From Comamonas sp. (GTDB lineage Bacteria > Pseudomonadota > Gammaproteobacteria > Burkholderiales > Burkholderiaceae_C): DNA of 64,000 nt. Positions 46,333 to 52,972 of the stretch are shown here, in pieces. Position numbers and translations under genes: made by a program. The stretch spans positions 134,515 through 198,514 of the forward strand of contig JAJPEQ010000011.1 in NCBI GenBank assembly GCA_021166775.1, given 5' to 3'. The first letter of the stretch is position 1; each line of letters begins with the position of its first letter. The notes beneath the pieces are model-generated. The model saw only the letters and a program-made list of their open reading frames with translations, made no database searches and had not been told where the DNA came from.

Positions 46333-47808
46333 ATGGGCATGATCAACCGCTTTAAAAAGTTCGCGGGTATCGACACCGGCGAAGACACCAGCGAAACCAT
46401 CCGGACCGTGCGCGAGGCTGCGGCCGCGCAAGGCGCGGGCGATGACGGCGGTAGCTGGCGGCGCCTCTCCGGCGATGGCCAGGGCAGCATGAATGACCGC
46501 GACCTGCAGCCCATGGCGCAAGAGCGCATGCAGAAGCTCGCCGAATACCTGTGGCAAAGCAACCTGCTGGCCAACCGCCTGGTGGAGCTGCCGCTGGCCT
46601 ACCTGCTGGCCGAGGGCGTGACGCTGCAATGCGCCGAAGACACCCACCAAAAGCTGCTCAACGCCTTCTGGGCCGATCCCATCAACAACTGGCCGATGAA
46701 GCTGGAAGGCCGCGTGCGCGCCCTGGGCCTGATGGGCGAACAGTGCTACGTGGCCAGCGTGCGCGAGGGCGATGGCTTCGTGCGCCTGGGCTACCTGGAC
46801 CCGCGCCAGATCGCCACCGTGGTCAACGACCCCTACAACCCCGAGCAGCCCATTGGCGTGGTCACCAAGCGCGACAGCCGGGGGCGCCAGTACAAGTACC
46901 GAGTGATCGTGTTGGGTGAGGAGTCGGAGCTCTTCAGCGCGGGCACGGTGCGCATCCGCGCCGAAGATTTCACTGATGGTGAAGTGCTGCTGTTCCAGCT
47001 CAACAAGTTTCCCAATGGCAGCCGCGGCCGCAGCGACCTGCTGGGGCAGATGGACTGGCTGGATGCCTACGACGGCTTTCTGTTCGCGGAGCTTGACCGC
47101 ATCGACTACCTGCGCCGTTTCGTGTGGGACGTGACTTTGAGCGGCGCGGACGATGAGGCGGTGAAGAAGTACCAAAAAGAGTTCGTCGCGCCGGCCCCCA
47201 ACAGCGTATGGGTGCACAACGAAAGTGTGACGCTGGCGCCCAAGACGCCAGGGCTGGATGCTGCTGACACCAGCCAGAGCGCCCGGTTGTTGCGCAACCA
47301 CGTTCTGGGCGGCGCCACCGTGCCCGAGCACTGGTTTGGCGGCGGCGGCGACGTGAACCGCGCGGCGGCCAGCGAGATGGGCGAGCCTACGTTCAAGATG
47401 TACAGCATGCGCCAGGGCTACTTGAAGCGCATGCTCGAAGAGATCGGCCGCTACGTGCTGCTGTGCCACGCCCGTACAACGGGCGTGGTGCCCGACTGGG
47501 CCGATGACGCCTGGCAGGTAACTGCCGTCTTCCCCGAGCTGCTCAACCGCGACATCACCAAATTCGCCAGCGCCATGCAGACGGTGACCAGCGCGGTGAC
47601 CCAGCTGATTGCCGCCGGATTGATGACCGAAGAGACCGCGCTCAAGACCGTGGCCGACGTGGCGCAGCGCTTTGGCCAGGACTTCGACGCCAAGACCGAG
47701 CTGGCGGCGGCCCGCACCGAGCACGCGGCGCGCCAGGCCGAGAAAGACGCCCGCGACGTGTTCCGCCTGCCCCCGAACAACGCGCCGCCCGAACCCGAGC
47801 CCGCCTGA
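46333..47808 (+). CDS. Portal protein
   Basis: 491 aa after the terminase; RGRSDL, VPEHWFG motifs. Confidence 0.85.
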   Translation: MGMINRFKKFAGIDTGEDTSETIRTVREAAAAQGAGDDGGSWRRLSGDGQGSMNDRDLQPMAQERMQKLAEYLWQSNLLANRLVELPLAYLLAEGVTLQCAEDTHQKLLNAFWADPINNWPMKLEGRVRALGLMGEQCYVASVREGDGFVRLGYLDPRQIATVVNDPYNPEQPIGVVTKRDSRGRQYKYRVIVLGEESELFSAGTVRIRAEDFTDGEVLLFQLNKFPNGSRGRSDLLGQMDWLDAYDGFLFAELDRIDYLRRFVWDVTLSGADDEAVKKYQKEFVAPAPNSVWVHNESVTLAPKTPGLDAADTSQSARLLRNHVLGGATVPEHWFGGGGDVNRAAASEMGEPTFKMYSMRQGYLKRMLEEIGRYVLLCHARTTGVVPDWADDAWQVTAVFPELLNRDITKFASAMQTVTSAVTQLIAAGLMTEETALKTVADVAQRFGQDFDAKTELAAARTEHAARQAEKDARDVFRLPPNNAPPEPEPA

Positions 47809-47814
47809 CGCGCC

Positions 47815-48750
47815 ATGGCGGACGCCTTGCAAAATCCCGACAAGGCCTTCGAGGCCGAACTGGCGCGCCACCTGCGCGAGCGCGCCCGCACGCTGCTGGC
47901 CGGGCAGACCGAGGTGCTGCAACTCTTGCAGGCCGCACGCACGCAGATCCTCGCCCAGCTCGCCGGCCTGCCGCCCGACTGGCAGCAGTGGCAGCTCTCG
48001 CGCCTGCTCGGGCAGATCGAGGACGTGCTGGCGGGTGCCACCAGCCAGGCTGGCTCGCTGTTCGCGCGGCGCATGGACGGCGCCTGGCACGCGGGAGAGG
48101 ATTTTGTCGATCAGCCCCTGGCCACCATCGGCCACCGCGTGGATCTGCGCCTGGCGCAGCTCGATGTGGGCGTCTTGAAGCAGATGCAGACCTTTGCCAG
48201 CCTGCGCCTGAAAAACGTGGGCCGCGAGGCGGCGGGGAGAATCGGCCAGCAGCTGGGCCTGGCCACGCTGGGCGGCATCACGCCGCACGAGGCCATCAAG
48301 GCCGTGCAAACCATCCTTGGCGGGCAGGCCGCGCAGCGCGCCGGCATGATCGTGCACACCGAAATGAGCCGCGCCTTCGACCTGGCGGCCAATGGACGCG
48401 TGCAGCAGGCCGCTGCGCTGGTGCCGGGCCTCTCCAAGCAATGGCGGCGCAGCGGCAAGATTCACAGCCGCTGGAACCACGACATCATCGACGGCCAGGT
48501 GGTGGATGCCAACAAGCCCTTCAAGGTGCCCAACCCGGGCGGTGGCTTTGACCTGATGCAATGCCCGCACGACCCCAAGGCGCCGGTGGAGCAGGTGATC
48601 CACTGCGGCTGCGTCAGCCTGCCGTGGATGAAGCAGTGGAAGGTGATGACGCCCGGCGCCAAGCCCTTCACTGAACGCGAGCTCGAGCTCGATGGCCGCA
48701 AGGCCGCGCTGGACCAAGCGGCCAAGCGCGCGGGGGCGCGAAAGGAATGA
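47815..48750 (+). CDS. Head morphogenesis protein (Mu gpF / SPP1 gp7-like)
   Basis: IVHTEMSRA, KQWRRSG, HDIIDGQ, IHCGC. Confidence 0.88.
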   Translation: MADALQNPDKAFEAELARHLRERARTLLAGQTEVLQLLQAARTQILAQLAGLPPDWQQWQLSRLLGQIEDVLAGATSQAGSLFARRMDGAWHAGEDFVDQPLATIGHRVDLRLAQLDVGVLKQMQTFASLRLKNVGREAAGRIGQQLGLATLGGITPHEAIKAVQTILGGQAAQRAGMIVHTEMSRAFDLAANGRVQQAAALVPGLSKQWRRSGKIHSRWNHDIIDGQVVDANKPFKVPNPGGGFDLMQCPHDPKAPVEQVIHCGCVSLPWMKQWKVMTPGAKPFTERELELDGRKAALDQAAKRAGARKE

Positions 48751-48908: not shown

Positions 48909-49700
48909 TCAGAAAAGGCCTCTTTGGCGCGCAACTTCTGCAGGAGCTACGCCGGAACGCAGGAGACCGATGATGATGAATTGCCTCGGATGGGCCTTCA
49001 TGGTTCCCATCACGAAATGCAGGTTTCGCTCGGGTATTCGTTGCTGGTACTGTTCGCGCAGTGCATCCATTCCACCATCGCCATAGTCTCGCTTGAACCT
49101 ATGAAATGCTGACTGTACTTCCCAATCATGAATTTTCATGTTATGGGAACGCCCGTCACAGGTGAACTGATAGCTGAACTCGTACTCGACGGTGATAGGG
49201 TTGAGGACCGATGGGTCCAACAGCGAAAATTGCCGAAAAGTGCTCCTCAGCGTAGCGTCTTCCGCAGAATCCTTTGAGAGCTTCCGCGCCTTAAAGCGCA
49301 AAGAGTCTTCATCTGGCTTCACGATACCGAGGCTCCTCTCCGTGCTCAAGTTCTCCTGCTTGAGGGCTTCAATGGAAGGGGAGACGTGAGGAAGCCAAGC
49401 CCGCACCTTTTGCTCTTCGTTGAGCTGATTAGCAAACTGGACTACCGTGATGGAGTCTTCGTTGACATGTCTGCTCTCAGGGCGATGATCGCCTACAGGT
49501 CGATGAGCAAAATATTCGAGAACATCCCACCGGTTGAATTGCTTGTCTATGGGGAGATGACGGAACCGAATCGGATAGAGGCGAACAAATTTTCCCTCCG
49601 GGGTGACTCCCGCGCAGCAGACCGTTTCATCGTATTTTTGGCTAGGCTGCGGGAACGCCTTCACAAGTACGAGCGCCCGCTCTTTGTCTCCCTGCACCAT
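48909..49700 (-). CDS. Uncharacterised 263-aa partner of DUF488 (cassette gene 2)
   Basis: VKAFPQPSQKYDETVCCAGV...VRLYPIRFR N-terminus; IHDWE; FVMGT..HP..FIIIGL; GGAG RBS inside the upstream gene; low GC. Confidence 0.85.
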   Translation of the reverse strand: MVQGDKERALVLVKAFPQPSQKYDETVCCAGVTPEGKFVRLYPIRFRHLPIDKQFNRWDVLEYFAHRPVGDHRPESRHVNEDSITVVQFANQLNEEQKVRAWLPHVSPSIEALKQENLSTERSLGIVKPDEDSLRFKARKLSKDSAEDATLRSTFRQFSLLDPSVLNPITVEYEFSYQFTCDGRSHNMKIHDWEVQSAFHRFKRDYGDGGMDALREQYQQRIPERNLHFVMGTMKAHPRQFIIIGLLRSGVAPAEVARQRGLF

Positions 49701-50136
49701 CTCTAACTCCCAGATGCTTCACTTTGAGCCCCGTGAGATTTTCAAGCTGACGTGCTACCACGCTGCGGTGACATGTGGCAGGATCACGTTCGTAGCATAC
49801 CAAGGCAACGGTGCCCTCCAGATCCGAGGCCAGCTTTTCCAGGAGAGGCTTTTGGGATTTTAGATATTCTTTAAAAGATTTGAAATAAGTTGCGTAATCG
49901 CCATCGACGTGGAGTTGGTGACGAATATTCTTTGGTGAACCCAAGTCTCTTTCGTGCCGGTAATTGATGCCTACGGCCTCTGCATGTTGCGCAAGTGCTT
50001 TCTTGGAAAAACCTTTGCGCCTCGAGATGGGGATTTCGCGTACGTCGAGCAACAGCGTCACGTTGGCGTGCGCAAGCGTCGCGATGAAGTCCTCGATAGA
50101 TGAGCCTTCGTATCCTATGGTCATGAGCTGCTGCAT
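49642..50136 (-). CDS. DUF488-family protein (cassette gene 1)
   Basis: TIGYEG, LLDVREIPISRRKGFSK, LGSP and LVCYERDPATCHR motifs; GAGG RBS; low GC. Confidence 0.88.
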   Translation of the reverse strand: MQQLMTIGYEGSSIEDFIATLAHANVTLLLDVREIPISRRKGFSKKALAQHAEAVGINYRHERDLGSPKNIRHQLHVDGDYATYFKSFKEYLKSQKPLLEKLASDLEGTVALVCYERDPATCHRSVVARQLENLTGLKVKHLGVRDGAGRQRAGARTCEGVPAA

Positions 50137-50341: not shown

Positions 50342-50602
50342 ATGCCCGACGACAAGACCAAGACCCCGCCCGAGGCCAACAGCAAGGCCAGGGAGCTGAC
50401 GACCGCCGACGCCGCCAAGCGCGTGAAGCGCACCGTCACCGAATGGGTGGACGGCGAAGACAAGGCGGGCAAGCCAGTCAAAACGGCGCGCACCCGCGAG
50501 GTGGCGGTGCAGGCCGCCGACGTGCTGTCGTTCCGCGACTACGGCACGCACGTCGTGGTGGTCACCACGGACGGCCAGAAGCTCTCCAGTCTGGGCGAGT
50601 AA
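50342..50602 (+). CDS. Small late protein (86 aa)
   Basis: GGAG RBS; first gene after late promoter 2. Confidence 0.75.
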   Translation: MPDDKTKTPPEANSKARELTTADAAKRVKRTVTEWVDGEDKAGKPVKTARTREVAVQAADVLSFRDYGTHVVVVTTDGQKLSSLGE

Positions 50603-50608
50603 GCGGCC

Positions 50609-52972
50609 ATGATCAAGCTCATCCCCGTCGGCACCGGCTTCGCGCGCCTGACCGAGGCGGTGACCACCGAGTACGGCCAGCTCTTGGACCTGGTGAGCCA
50701 GGCCATCCGCGAGAAGCTGCGTCTGGCGGCCAATGGCGGCGACTTCTACGCGAACGTGCGCGGCATCTGGCCCGATCGCGTGGTGGTGCAGTTCAAAGGG
50801 CGCCTCTACAGCTACGCCTACACCGTGGCGGCGGACAACACCGTCGCCCTGGGCGACGCCACCGAGGTGGTGCAGGACTTTGCGCCTGTGGACGCTGCCA
50901 CGCCGCCCGCCGCAGGAACCACGGGCGCCGTTCGCGAAGCCATCCAGCCGCACGGTGACGTCCGCTTCACGGAGGCGGCCGATGGCTCGATCGAAGTCAC
51001 CATCGTCAAGGCCGGGCGCAGCGGCAACCGCAACTACTACTCCGACGCCGCGCTGCGCGAGGCCGCCCCCATCTTCGAGGGCGTGCGCGTGTTCGCGAAG
51101 TCAGATACCGATCACACGACCGGCAAGGGCAAGGATGTGCGCAACCTGATCGGCGGCATCTATGGCGTGCGGTTCGTCGAGGGCAAGACGCCCGACAGCG
51201 GCGTGCTCGTGGGCACGTTCAAAGCCATCGACCCTTCGGACGCCGTGGTCACCAAGATGACTGAGGCCGTCAAGCGCGGCATGCAAGACCTGCTGGGTCT
51301 GTCCATTGACGCCATTGCACGCACCAAGCCACGCATGGTGGGCCGAGTGCGCCTCACCGAGGCGTCGAAGTTCCTCAAGGTGAACTCCGTTGATTTGATT
51401 GTCGAGCCGGGCGCTGGCGGCGGCCTGGATCGTCTCACCGAAGCCGCCGCCGATCCATACATCACCAACACCCCGAAGGAAGAAGCCATGCCCCTGTGGA
51501 AGCAACGCATGCTGGAGGCCATCCAGGCCAAAGACCCGGCGAAGCACGCCGCGATCGACGTCGACACTGTCACCGACGACGCGGTCACTCAACTGTATGA
51601 GGCCGTGTGCGGCCCGCTGGTGCCGGCCGAGCCTGGCACGCGACGCGTGGCCGAGGCGCAGGGTCAAGGCGATGACACCCCGCTCACTCGCGCCGACCTG
51701 CAGATGTTCGAGCAGCGCGCCGCCGCGCGCGAGCGCATTGGCGCGGCCAAGCTGCCGCAGGCCTCGCGCGACCGACTGCTCGCGCAGATCGCCACGGCCG
51801 GGGCTGAGCGCCTCACCGAAGCGGCCGTGGGCGACCTCATCAAGACCGAGGGCGACTACGTGGCCCGTTTGACCGAAAGCGGCACCGTGCGCGTGCCCAT
51901 GTTCGGCGAGGGCTCAATCACCGTGGGCGACCGCAGCCTGACCATGCGCGACATGCTGGATGCCTTCTGGGACCCGGCGCACAAGGACCACGGCCGCGTG
52001 CAGTCCTTCAAGGAGTGCTACGTCGAGATGACGGGCGACCGCCTGGTGACGGGCCGCCTGCGCGAGTGCGACCAGTCGCGCCTGGTGGAATCGCTGGGCA
52101 GCGCCTCGCTGGGCGAGGTGCTGGGCGACAGCGTCACGCGCCGCATGCTTGCCGAATACCGCGCTGCGGTGGACTTCGACGGCTGGCGCCAACTGGTCAA
52201 CGTGGTGCCCGTGAACGACTTCCGCATGCAGCACCGCACCCGCTGGGGCGGCTATGGCGATCTGCCGGACGTGGCCGAGGGCGCCGACTATCTGCCGCTG
52301 ACCAGCCCCGGCGATGAAGAAGCCACCTACAAGGCGGGCAAGAAGGGCGGCACGGAAGACATAACGCTGGAGATGATCAAGAACGACGACGTGGGCACGA
52401 TCCGCCGCATTCCCACCAAGCTCTCGCGCGCCGCCAAGCGCACCCTGGCCAAGTTCGTGTTCGACTTCCTGCGTGCCAATCCGGTGATCTACGACACCAA
52501 GGCGCTGTTTCACGTTGATCACGCCAATCTGTTTGCCGCCGCGCTCTCGAAGACGGAGCTGGCCGTGCACCGTTTGGCAATGCTCAAGCAGACCGAGCTG
52601 AGCAGCAACGACCGCATCGGCATCACGCCCACGCGCCTCGTCGTTCCCGTGGAGCTGCAAGAGACGGCCGTTGATCTGTTCAAGCTGTCCACCAACAACG
52701 AAAAGACGTTCATCCAGTCCCTGACGATGAACATCATCCCCGTGTGGTACTGGACCGATGCCAACGACTGGTGCACCGCCGCAGACCCGGCCGACATTCC
52801 CGGCATCGAGATGGGCTTCCTGGACGGCCGCGAGGAGCCCGAGCTGTTCGTGCAGGACACGCCCAACGTGGGCTCCATGTTCGCGGCCGACAAGCTGACC
52901 TACAAGATTCGCCACATCTACGGCGGCGCGGTCACCGACTACCGCGCCTTTACCAAGGCCGTGGTGGCCTGA
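50609..52972 (+). CDS. Prohead protease-scaffold-major capsid (gpT-like) fusion
   Basis: Protease-like NYYS..L..A..FEG, GLSID and SVDLIVEPGAGG; capsid-like VNDFR, DLPDVAEG, ITLEMIKNDD, YKIRH. Confidence 0.88.
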   Translation: MIKLIPVGTGFARLTEAVTTEYGQLLDLVSQAIREKLRLAANGGDFYANVRGIWPDRVVVQFKGRLYSYAYTVAADNTVALGDATEVVQDFAPVDAATPPAAGTTGAVREAIQPHGDVRFTEAADGSIEVTIVKAGRSGNRNYYSDAALREAAPIFEGVRVFAKSDTDHTTGKGKDVRNLIGGIYGVRFVEGKTPDSGVLVGTFKAIDPSDAVVTKMTEAVKRGMQDLLGLSIDAIARTKPRMVGRVRLTEASKFLKVNSVDLIVEPGAGGGLDRLTEAAADPYITNTPKEEAMPLWKQRMLEAIQAKDPAKHAAIDVDTVTDDAVTQLYEAVCGPLVPAEPGTRRVAEAQGQGDDTPLTRADLQMFEQRAAARERIGAAKLPQASRDRLLAQIATAGAERLTEAAVGDLIKTEGDYVARLTESGTVRVPMFGEGSITVGDRSLTMRDMLDAFWDPAHKDHGRVQSFKECYVEMTGDRLVTGRLRECDQSRLVESLGSASLGEVLGDSVTRRMLAEYRAAVDFDGWRQLVNVVPVNDFRMQHRTRWGGYGDLPDVAEGADYLPLTSPGDEEATYKAGKKGGTEDITLEMIKNDDVGTIRRIPTKLSRAAKRTLAKFVFDFLRANPVIYDTKALFHVDHANLFAAALSKTELAVHRLAMLKQTELSSNDRIGITPTRLVVPVELQETAVDLFKLSTNNEKTFIQSLTMNIIPVWYWTDANDWCTAADPADIPGIEMGFLDGREEPELFVQDTPNVGSMFAADKLTYKIRHIYGGAVTDYRAFTKAVVA

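Follow-up and report, generated by a model that had tools for sequence, protein, structure and literature searches.

A single head gene of a Mu-like Comamonas prophage joins protease, scaffold and capsid, with a predicted internal start and an array of putative glutamate cleavage sites

The window analyzed here is a stretch of 64,000 nucleotides from Comamonas sp. (assembly GCA_021166775.1, contig JAJPEQ010000011.1, positions 134,515 to 198,514), and our subject is a head gene at positions 50609-52972 on its plus strand. We propose, with a probability of about 0.7, that this gene gives rise to two nested products, that its own protease processes them after Glu at a recurring motif, and that this processing releases the mature capsid protein. 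Ribosomes would start at two places. The weak upstream ATG (50609) would yield a minor 85.8-kDa product with an N-terminal domain, protease, scaffold and capsid, and a Shine-Dalgarno (SD) sequence and ATG at Met294 (51488) would yield the bulk 54.6-kDa scaffold-capsid product, similar to HK97 gp5 with its delta domain. The scaffold and capsid parts common to both products might allow them to co-assemble, with a few protease domains ending up inside the procapsid. The serine protease would then cut after Glu in R/K-[LFMIV]-x-E/[A/S]. A cut at E494/S495 could free a mature capsid protein of 293 residues (32.6 kDa), cuts at the other 12 sites could break up scaffold, protease and N-terminal domain alike into pieces of 12-94 residues able to exit the shell, and one further site could serve to trim the N-terminal leader of the portal. 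One reading frame would thereby join the jobs of Mu genes I (protease), Z (scaffold, with its start inside I) and T (capsid).

The earlier note on this DNA, made from the sequence alone, had read the gene as protease, scaffold and capsid in one. We consider this identity very probable, and the parts are laid out as follows.

50609-52972, plus strand: whole head gene, a polyprotein of N-terminal domain, protease, scaffold and major capsid protein, recognized as an open reading frame (ORF) with a full-length match to phrog_29592.
50609-50974, plus strand: N-terminal accessory domain, residues 1-122, with a folded alpha+beta part at about residues 20-100, bordered by sites E16, E110 and E122.
50975-51442, plus strand: predicted prohead serine protease core, residues 123-278, assigned from invariant columns, an AlphaFold2 predicted local distance difference test (pLDDT) of about 95, BFVD matches and phrog_15531.
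51113-51115 (H169), 51302-51304 (S232) and 51392-51394 (D262), plus strand: putative triad, at invariant columns.
51488-52090, plus strand: scaffold, similar to a delta domain, residues 294-494, 22.1 kDa, all-helical in the AlphaFold2 model, with 6 motif sites.
52091-52969, plus strand: major capsid protein domain, residues 495-787, 293 residues, 32.6 kDa, with an HK97 fold and similar to Mu gpT.

The gene is an uninterrupted ORF of 787 codons for a protein of 787 residues (85.8 kDa); the coordinates include the stop codon. Among PHROGs families, phrog_29592 (unknown function) matches the protein over its full length (E 8.5e-212), and the ‘major head and protease’ families phrog_4523/133 match its C-terminal part. 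There are more than 1,600 homologues, whose taxonomic spread we took from the source names in the homologue search: Comamonas, Acidovorax, Paracidovorax, Delftia, Ottowia, Hydrogenophaga, Ramlibacter and Rhodoferax. An exhaustive HMMER search with residues 1-494 gave 1,130 representatives after clustering at 50% identity, including full-length fusions down to ~27% identity, versions without the first ~120 residues, and short proteins spanning only ~121-336.

The C-terminal part of the protein is clearly the capsid protein. Residues 487-783 belong to Pfam PF25209 Phage_capsid_4 (159.5 bits against a gathering cut-off of 27), with a weak Mu gpT signal besides, and the start of this match bears out the earlier observation that the last motif copy, RLVE/S with the Ser495 codon at 52091, sits where capsid-like sequence begins. 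In hhalign the capsid domain pairs with Mu gpT at a probability of 91%, in a register that sets gpT residue 1 at about residue 501 here, a few residues from S495. A PDB search with the family profile returned only Mu GpT-type capsids (8rkc/8rkx), and when the PDB was searched with the single protein sequence, nothing matched. At the level of structure, Foldseek matched residues 495-787 to mature HK97-fold capsid proteins of 280-300 residues in the PDB (E 5e-11). For this and the other domains we used two AlphaFold2 models, of residues 1-345 (pLDDT 85) and residues 294-787 (pLDDT 90.7). In the model, residues 294-494 form nothing but helices, interrupted by disorder at 345-355 and 425-437, next to E349 and E423.

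Several observations support a prohead-fold serine protease at residues 123-278, with H169, S232 and D262 as its putative triad. An alignment of 81 diverse sequences (22-77% identity) has just five invariant columns within residues 1-345, namely G136, H169, G182, S232 (which is the Ser of GLSID) and D262. The conserved residues come as His, then Ser, then Asp, as in prohead serine proteases of the T4 type; this order is that reported for T4 gp21-type enzymes (PMC5694885). The model of residues 1-345 has a compact core at 125-278, a second disordered linker at 279-289 and helices from residue 296. Compared with BFVD by Foldseek, it gave 78 significant matches, the best of them capsid-maturation or prohead proteases (E 7e-13 to 1e-5, probability 1.0), including COG3740 (HK97 gp4-type), XkdF-type and ‘prohead core protein serine protease’ entries. 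The ‘head maturation protease’ family phrog_15531 also matches this region, and one representative (P0165) is a complete stand-alone gene of just the protease domain, 253 residues long.

In front of the protease lies a domain modeled with pLDDT above 85 at residues 20-100, as one helix packed on a 4-5-stranded sheet and followed by a disordered linker at 104-119. It is missing in many relatives, whose match begins at query residue ~120. It is weakly matched by phrog_760 (unknown function), and its sole resemblance in the PDB, to the cystatin-fold 4r80_A, is non-significant (Foldseek E 0.21). With the conserved sites E16 and E110/E122 on either side, the domain could be a pro-domain that is removed.

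The surroundings of the gene are consistent with these assignments. The neighbors run in the order terminase, portal, MuF-like protein, head gene and tail genes, and the ORF list, Pfam and PHROG revealed no separate protease or scaffold gene between the portal and tail genes. With three domains in one ORF and neither function encoded separately in the head module, the gene falls into the architecture class of tripartite protease-scaffold-capsid fusions. Taken with its neighbors, it is likely to be the single head-assembly gene of a Mu-like siphoviral (transposable) prophage.

The feature that points to processing is a short motif, [LFMV]-x-E-[AS], which occurs 13 times in residues 1-495 and 0 times in residues 496-787. 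All the variants that the earlier note had listed are present, including RLTEA four times (at residues 13, 248, 275 and 401). When residues 1-495 were shuffled, the mean was 1.1 copies (standard deviation 1.0, maximum 8), and 0 of 20,000 shuffles reached 13. The absence from the last 292 residues, to which the earlier note had also drawn attention, is real and yet non-significant on its own (expected 0.54, P(0)=0.57), and relatives often carry a motif-like site near positions 557 or 685. Conservation of each site was counted in 62 diverse homologues; the coordinates below are those of the four-residue windows P3-P1'.

50648-50659, plus strand: site E16, motif in 61% of homologues.
50930-50941, plus strand: site E110, motif in 61%.
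50966-50977, plus strand: site E122, motif in 76%.
51053-51064, plus strand: site E151, motif in 71%.
51257-51268, plus strand: site E219, motif in 48%.
51353-51364, plus strand: site E251, motif in 27%.
51434-51445, plus strand: site E278, motif in 68%.
51509-51520, plus strand: site E303, motif in 26%.
51593-51604, plus strand: site E331/332, motif in about 63%.
51647-51658, plus strand: site E349, motif in 24%.
51812-51823, plus strand: site E404, motif in 29%.
51869-51880, plus strand: site E423, motif in 47%.
52082-52093, plus strand: predicted capsid maturation site L492-V-E494/S495, the best conserved, motif in 54 of 62 (87%); predicted mature N-terminus SLGSASLGE.

The earlier note had let its reading stand or fall with conservation of the motif in homologues, and enrichment is kept in representatives down to ~27% identity (for example, 15 copies against 2.1 expected and 17 against 2.3). 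Representatives at 27-45% identity typically have 8-18 copies against 1.5-3 expected, with site positions that partly turn over. Because enrichment is thus family-wide and extends to distant representatives, it is not a by-product of sequence conservation. A logo of 843 sites shows R/K at P4, L/F/V/I/M at P3, E at P1 and A/S/G at P1'; in the same comparison, Glu residues of the capsid domain have no such sequence context. Within the head and tail module the head-gene protein alone is enriched for the motif. Conservation is highest at sites in predicted disordered linkers or at domain boundaries, and in the two models E16, E110, E122, E278, E349 and E423 are in or beside linkers of low pLDDT.

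The portal carries a related signal. Its N-terminus contains the VREA that the earlier note had picked out, as V26-R27-E28-A29.

46333-47808, plus strand: portal gene.
46408-46419, plus strand: portal V26-R27-E28/A29, a putative propeptide cut site that would make the portal a second substrate.

In portal homologues [VMLF]-R-E-A is kept to about 50% identity, and it sits exactly at the junction between a leader variable in length and sequence and the conserved core.

A further line of support comes from a divergent clade that appears to have switched its specificity from Glu to Gln at homologous sites. In three related representatives, P0216, P0264 and P0258, the P1 residue of these sites is Gln and the Glu motif is not enriched. 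Their capsid maturation site reads RISQ/A or RLRQ/T. The corresponding Gln motif occurs 15 times against 4.9 expected (P=2e-4) and 11 times against 3.8 (P=1e-3), and Gln fills 5/13 and 4/13 of the site columns, compared with a 1.8% background (P=2e-6 and 7e-5). In the protease, two near-invariant residues are replaced in this clade, Y144 by F/W and S260 by G/T/A; they are candidate P1-pocket residues, which we regard as only a lead. Enrichment, logo, position, portal and covariation are five independent lines of evidence that agree in supporting the motif copies as putative cut sites, and we judge it quite likely that the motif is the recognition site of the protease.

The second element of the proposal is an internal start at the junction between protease and scaffold. 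An AAGGA does precede the in-frame Met294, as the earlier note had it.

51476-51480 (AAGGA), 7-nucleotide spacer, 51488-51490 (ATG), plus strand: predicted internal translation start, from sequence and conservation.

The Met294 column holds Met in 52 of the 62 diverse homologues and in 64 of 67 loci, within a linker that is otherwise gappy and variable. The residues encoded by the SD region differ widely (PKEEA, NEGSE, QGSQT, SQGNA, TGAT, SAGDA, LEDED and others); despite this, a GGA/GGAG/GAGG core is found 6-11 nucleotides before the ATG in 60 of 61 non-redundant loci. The predicted duplex with the anti-SD sequence is at or below -5.4 kcal/mol in 60 of the 61; its energy averages -6.5, compared with about -2.8 for the background within the gene. 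Ranked by SD strength over aligned codon columns, Met294 comes 9th of 753 (mean -6.2 against a background of -2.7 kcal/mol), and no other column of high rank has a conserved ATG. For Met1, the annotated start, the mean is -3.8 kcal/mol, and there is no comparable SD at 50609. On comparative evidence, the site therefore has the characteristics of an in-frame internal initiation site at a protease/scaffold junction, of the type of Mu I/Z, lambda C/Nu3 and herpesvirus UL26/UL26.5. A packing estimate, in which the procapsid radius is an assumed value from general knowledge, gives a similar picture: in a T=7 procapsid as large as that of HK97, about 69% of the space would be taken up by 415 copies of the 53-kDa N-terminal part and 29% by the 22-kDa scaffold alone, which makes a bulk scaffold-capsid product plausible. 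We think that the start at Met294 is probably used, as the earlier note had suggested from the sequence. One representative (P0135, 501 residues), which begins exactly at the Met294 equivalent, had looked like a natural split gene; its start is 27 nucleotides from a contig end, which marks it as a gene-calling artefact, and it was left unused.

Several points weigh against this account, and three alternative explanations draw on them. The least probable holds that the N-terminal region is no active protease and is instead a degenerate or purely scaffolding domain, with processing left to a host protease or absent altogether. Its appeal lies in the searches that came back empty. For residues 1-345 no Pfam or NCBIfam model matched even at E<=10, and scans of 1-108, 109-289, 290-494 and 1-494 at that threshold revealed no protease family. 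Profile membership in MEROPS S78 / Pfam Peptidase_S78 or in Mu-like_Pro was not found. Comparison of the family profile with Mu gpI and HK97 gp4 by hhalign detected nothing, with single-sequence templates of low sensitivity, and Foldseek found no significant match to the protease model in the PDB (best E 0.13), so that assignment to the fold of HK97 gp4, T4 gp21 and herpesvirus assemblin rests on matches to predicted viral structures. A degenerate domain would nevertheless hardly be expected to keep His, Ser and Asp invariant in prohead-protease order in 81 sequences, to match many annotated prohead proteases in BFVD as well as phrog_15531, or to exist as a stand-alone gene, and we consider this explanation very improbable.

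Somewhat less remote, though still improbable, is the idea that the R-L-x-E-A motif is a structural or docking element, for example for helix capping or for contact with the capsid interior or the portal, with maturation cleavage elsewhere or at one or two places. Ala/Glu/Leu/Arg-rich motifs are common in helical scaffolds, and the copies at E151, E219 and E251 lie within confidently folded helices and strands of the protease, where they are perhaps inaccessible. Two further points weaken our own reading. Five of the 13 sites are kept in less than 30% of distant relatives, and only about 8 in at least 45%. In the Gln clade, the single portal available (n=1, on contig L087) has a very short leader (…SHRKASQSF…) and is uninformative as to whether x-Q-A marks the leader boundary. 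A structural role is hard to reconcile with the placement of the best-conserved copies in linkers and at domain boundaries and not in helices, with the same motif at the leader/core junction of the unrelated portal, or with positions that turn over while copy number stays; independent structural roles fit poorly with a clade in which at least 4-5 homologous sites have changed together from Glu to Gln. The alternative that deserves most attention, while unlikely, is a pure polyprotein, with the 787-residue protein as the only product, protease and capsid at 1:1, and Met294 and its purine-rich stretch kept for protein-level or other causes, for example as the start of a helix or for a pause in translation. 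The reading frame is open and conserved throughout. These GC-rich genes contain many SD-like strings, which also occur elsewhere in the gene where conserved residues encode them, single loci rank only in about the top 10%, and 8 columns outrank Met294 for SD strength. The compared loci are phylogenetically related, and hence their counts are not independent events. What speaks for an internal start over a pure polyprotein is that the SD core stays at its distance from the ATG while the encoded residues vary, that Met is kept inside a gappy linker, that 415 copies of the N-terminal part would crowd the procapsid, and that Mu gene I, with its annotated nested start for Z, provides a precedent.

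Internal initiation, Glu-site processing and the Gln clade might also be combined in one more tentative picture. The uncurated protease family would then be a natural model of protease/substrate co-evolution, in which one active site reads about a dozen sites in cis and the portal leader in trans, and a sub-clade has exchanged the P1 Glu for Gln at every key site, with Y144 and S260 then lining the S1 pocket. What looks like a ‘fusion’ would in fact be two nested genes, with the protease:capsid ratio set by the internal start, and the N-terminal domain, flanked by E16 and E110/E122, would be a pro-domain that prevents protease activity before assembly.

Fused protease-scaffold-capsid genes are already known. 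The ‘tripartite capsid gene’ of Gifsy-2 (Effantin et al. 2010, Virology 402:355, as cited in PMC8538268) is given there as a gene of this kind. As here, Gifsy-2 and related ClpP-type fusions (NCBIfam NF045540 scaf_prot_MCP1) are single ORFs with the protease at the N-terminus, the scaffold in the middle and an HK97-fold capsid at the C-terminus, and by tblastn the capsid domains of Gifsy-2, mEp043, Stenotrophomonas S1 and others are related to this one at about 30% identity over ~498-786. In contrast to the Gifsy-2 type, the present protease is not ClpP-like (it has no CLP_protease match, and His precedes Ser), there is an extra N-terminal domain and a dense array of Glu-Ala sites, and the prophage is Mu-like and not lambdoid. 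The protein scores 146.9 bits against the NF045540 cut-off of 475, with only residues 500-784 aligned and no ClpP Pfam match. The same kind of fused gene is represented by NF045541 scaf_prot_MCP2 and by the actinophage ‘major capsid and protease fusion protein’, an established annotation category. Against NF045541 the protein reaches 176 bits where the cut-off is 525; residues 345-783 align with model positions 206-630, leaving the protease and the N-terminal domain uncovered. What distinguishes the gene described here is its uncurated protease and N-terminal domain, the merging of I, Z and T in a Mu-like context, a motif array that reaches the portal, and the apparent switch from Glu to Gln.

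The closest parallel in layout is Mu itself. Both Mu and the present prophage are Mu-like transposable elements with a MuF-like gene upstream, and the capsid domain is homologous to gpT. GenBank gives 361 residues for Mu gene I, inside which the start of Z is annotated at residue ~179, and 305 residues for T, which comes next. Module order is the same and sizes are similar (here ~170 residues for the protease, 201 for the scaffold and 293 for the capsid), and an in-frame nested start is annotated for Mu Z. A GenBank note records that the start of Mu gpT was confirmed by amino-acid sequencing, from which it follows that Mu T is made as a separate gene, whereas the capsid part here is fused in frame and must be freed by cleavage. 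The protease part and Mu gpI have no detectable sequence similarity. HK97 offers a similar comparison: the proposed internal product, a helical scaffold plus capsid domain whose scaffold is removed by protease, is like gp5, and the mature fold matches HK97 Head I/II. In HK97, however, the protease gp4 is a separate gene, and hhalign detected no similarity of the family profile to gp4 or gp5.

Glu-cutting prohead proteases are documented in T4, phiKZ and SPN3US, where they cut after Glu at multiple sites in propeptides and scaffold and also trim the portal and themselves (PMC5694885, PMC10052503), and the proposed mechanism thus has precedent. T4 gp21, phiKZ gp175 and SPN3US gp245 share with the present protease the His-Ser-Asp order, and their Glu cleavage at a short x-x-E resembles the pattern R/K-[LFMIV]-x-E/[AS] predicted here from sequence. 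These phages are large virulent myoviruses with separate genes for protease, scaffold and capsid, and no sequence-level membership links the present protein to them. As the protease is no sequence-detectable member of the T4 gp21, HK97 gp4 or Mu gpI families, comparisons with T4 and Mu are analogies of mechanism and layout. The earlier note's appeal to T4 gp21 and Mu gpZ holds in this sense and does not extend to family membership.

The only isolated phage with a full-length homologue is the Microcystis phage Mae-JY22 (PP438414.1; L001 6029-8344), at 46% identity. This homologue keeps sites of the E16, E110, E122, E278, E423 and E494 type, the Met and an upstream GGAG. Like nearly all structural genes of that phage it is annotated as ‘hypothetical protein’, a further point that weighs against our interpretation. 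A literature search revealed no paper on Mae-JY22, this fusion family, its motif, its internal start or Mu-like processing at Glu.

The specificities of capsid maturation proteases in small temperate phages are poorly defined, and the stoichiometry problem of protease-capsid fusion genes is unsettled in the literature we searched. Here, R/K-[LFMIV]-x-E/[AS] may constitute a cleavage code readable from sequence, one that would predict the capsid N-terminus, scaffold dicing, self-destruction of the protease and portal trimming. The Gln clade may represent a natural specificity switch with candidate pocket residues. The predicted start at Met294 is among the clearer comparative cases of a nested start in a fusion gene, and it links fused genes to the separate Mu I/Z/T. 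The phrog_29592 family, now of ‘unknown function’ and ‘hypothetical protein’ in Mae-JY22 and many genomes, could gain an annotation together with an internal coding sequence. The value of this work lies in clear and cheap experimental predictions and in the annotation of a widespread ‘hypothetical’ family, and it introduces no new principle.

A small ORF directly precedes the head gene.

50342-50602, plus strand: small ORF of 86 residues, without a Pfam or PHROG match, whose stop lies 6 nucleotides before the head-gene ATG.

The proximity of its stop to the ATG makes translational coupling possible. ORFs of similar size stand at the equivalent place in relatives (L086 486-746, L087 6745-7008 and Mae-JY22 L001 5805-6032), and the 86-residue ORF may encode a small, conserved factor for head assembly whose translation is coupled to that of the full-length product.

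Other features of the module are of separate interest. The MuF-like head-morphogenesis gene (47815-48750, plus strand) scores 23.1 bits for Phage_Mu_F, below the cut-off of 29.6, and is matched well by PHROG head-morphogenesis families; its protein contains no copy of the cleavage-type motif. Between it and the head gene, two minus-strand genes (48909-50136), for a 263-residue protein without a family match and a DUF488 protein, break a head module that is otherwise on the plus strand. On the metagenome contig that carries the Gln-clade representative P0258 (L087 1545-8968), the packaging genes (Mu gp27-like, terminase, portal and MuF) and the block of capsid and tail genes lie on opposite strands and are divergently transcribed; in the window the two blocks are collinear. 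Finally, the close relationship between the head module of a betaproteobacterial prophage and that of the cyanophage Mae-JY22 was unexpected.

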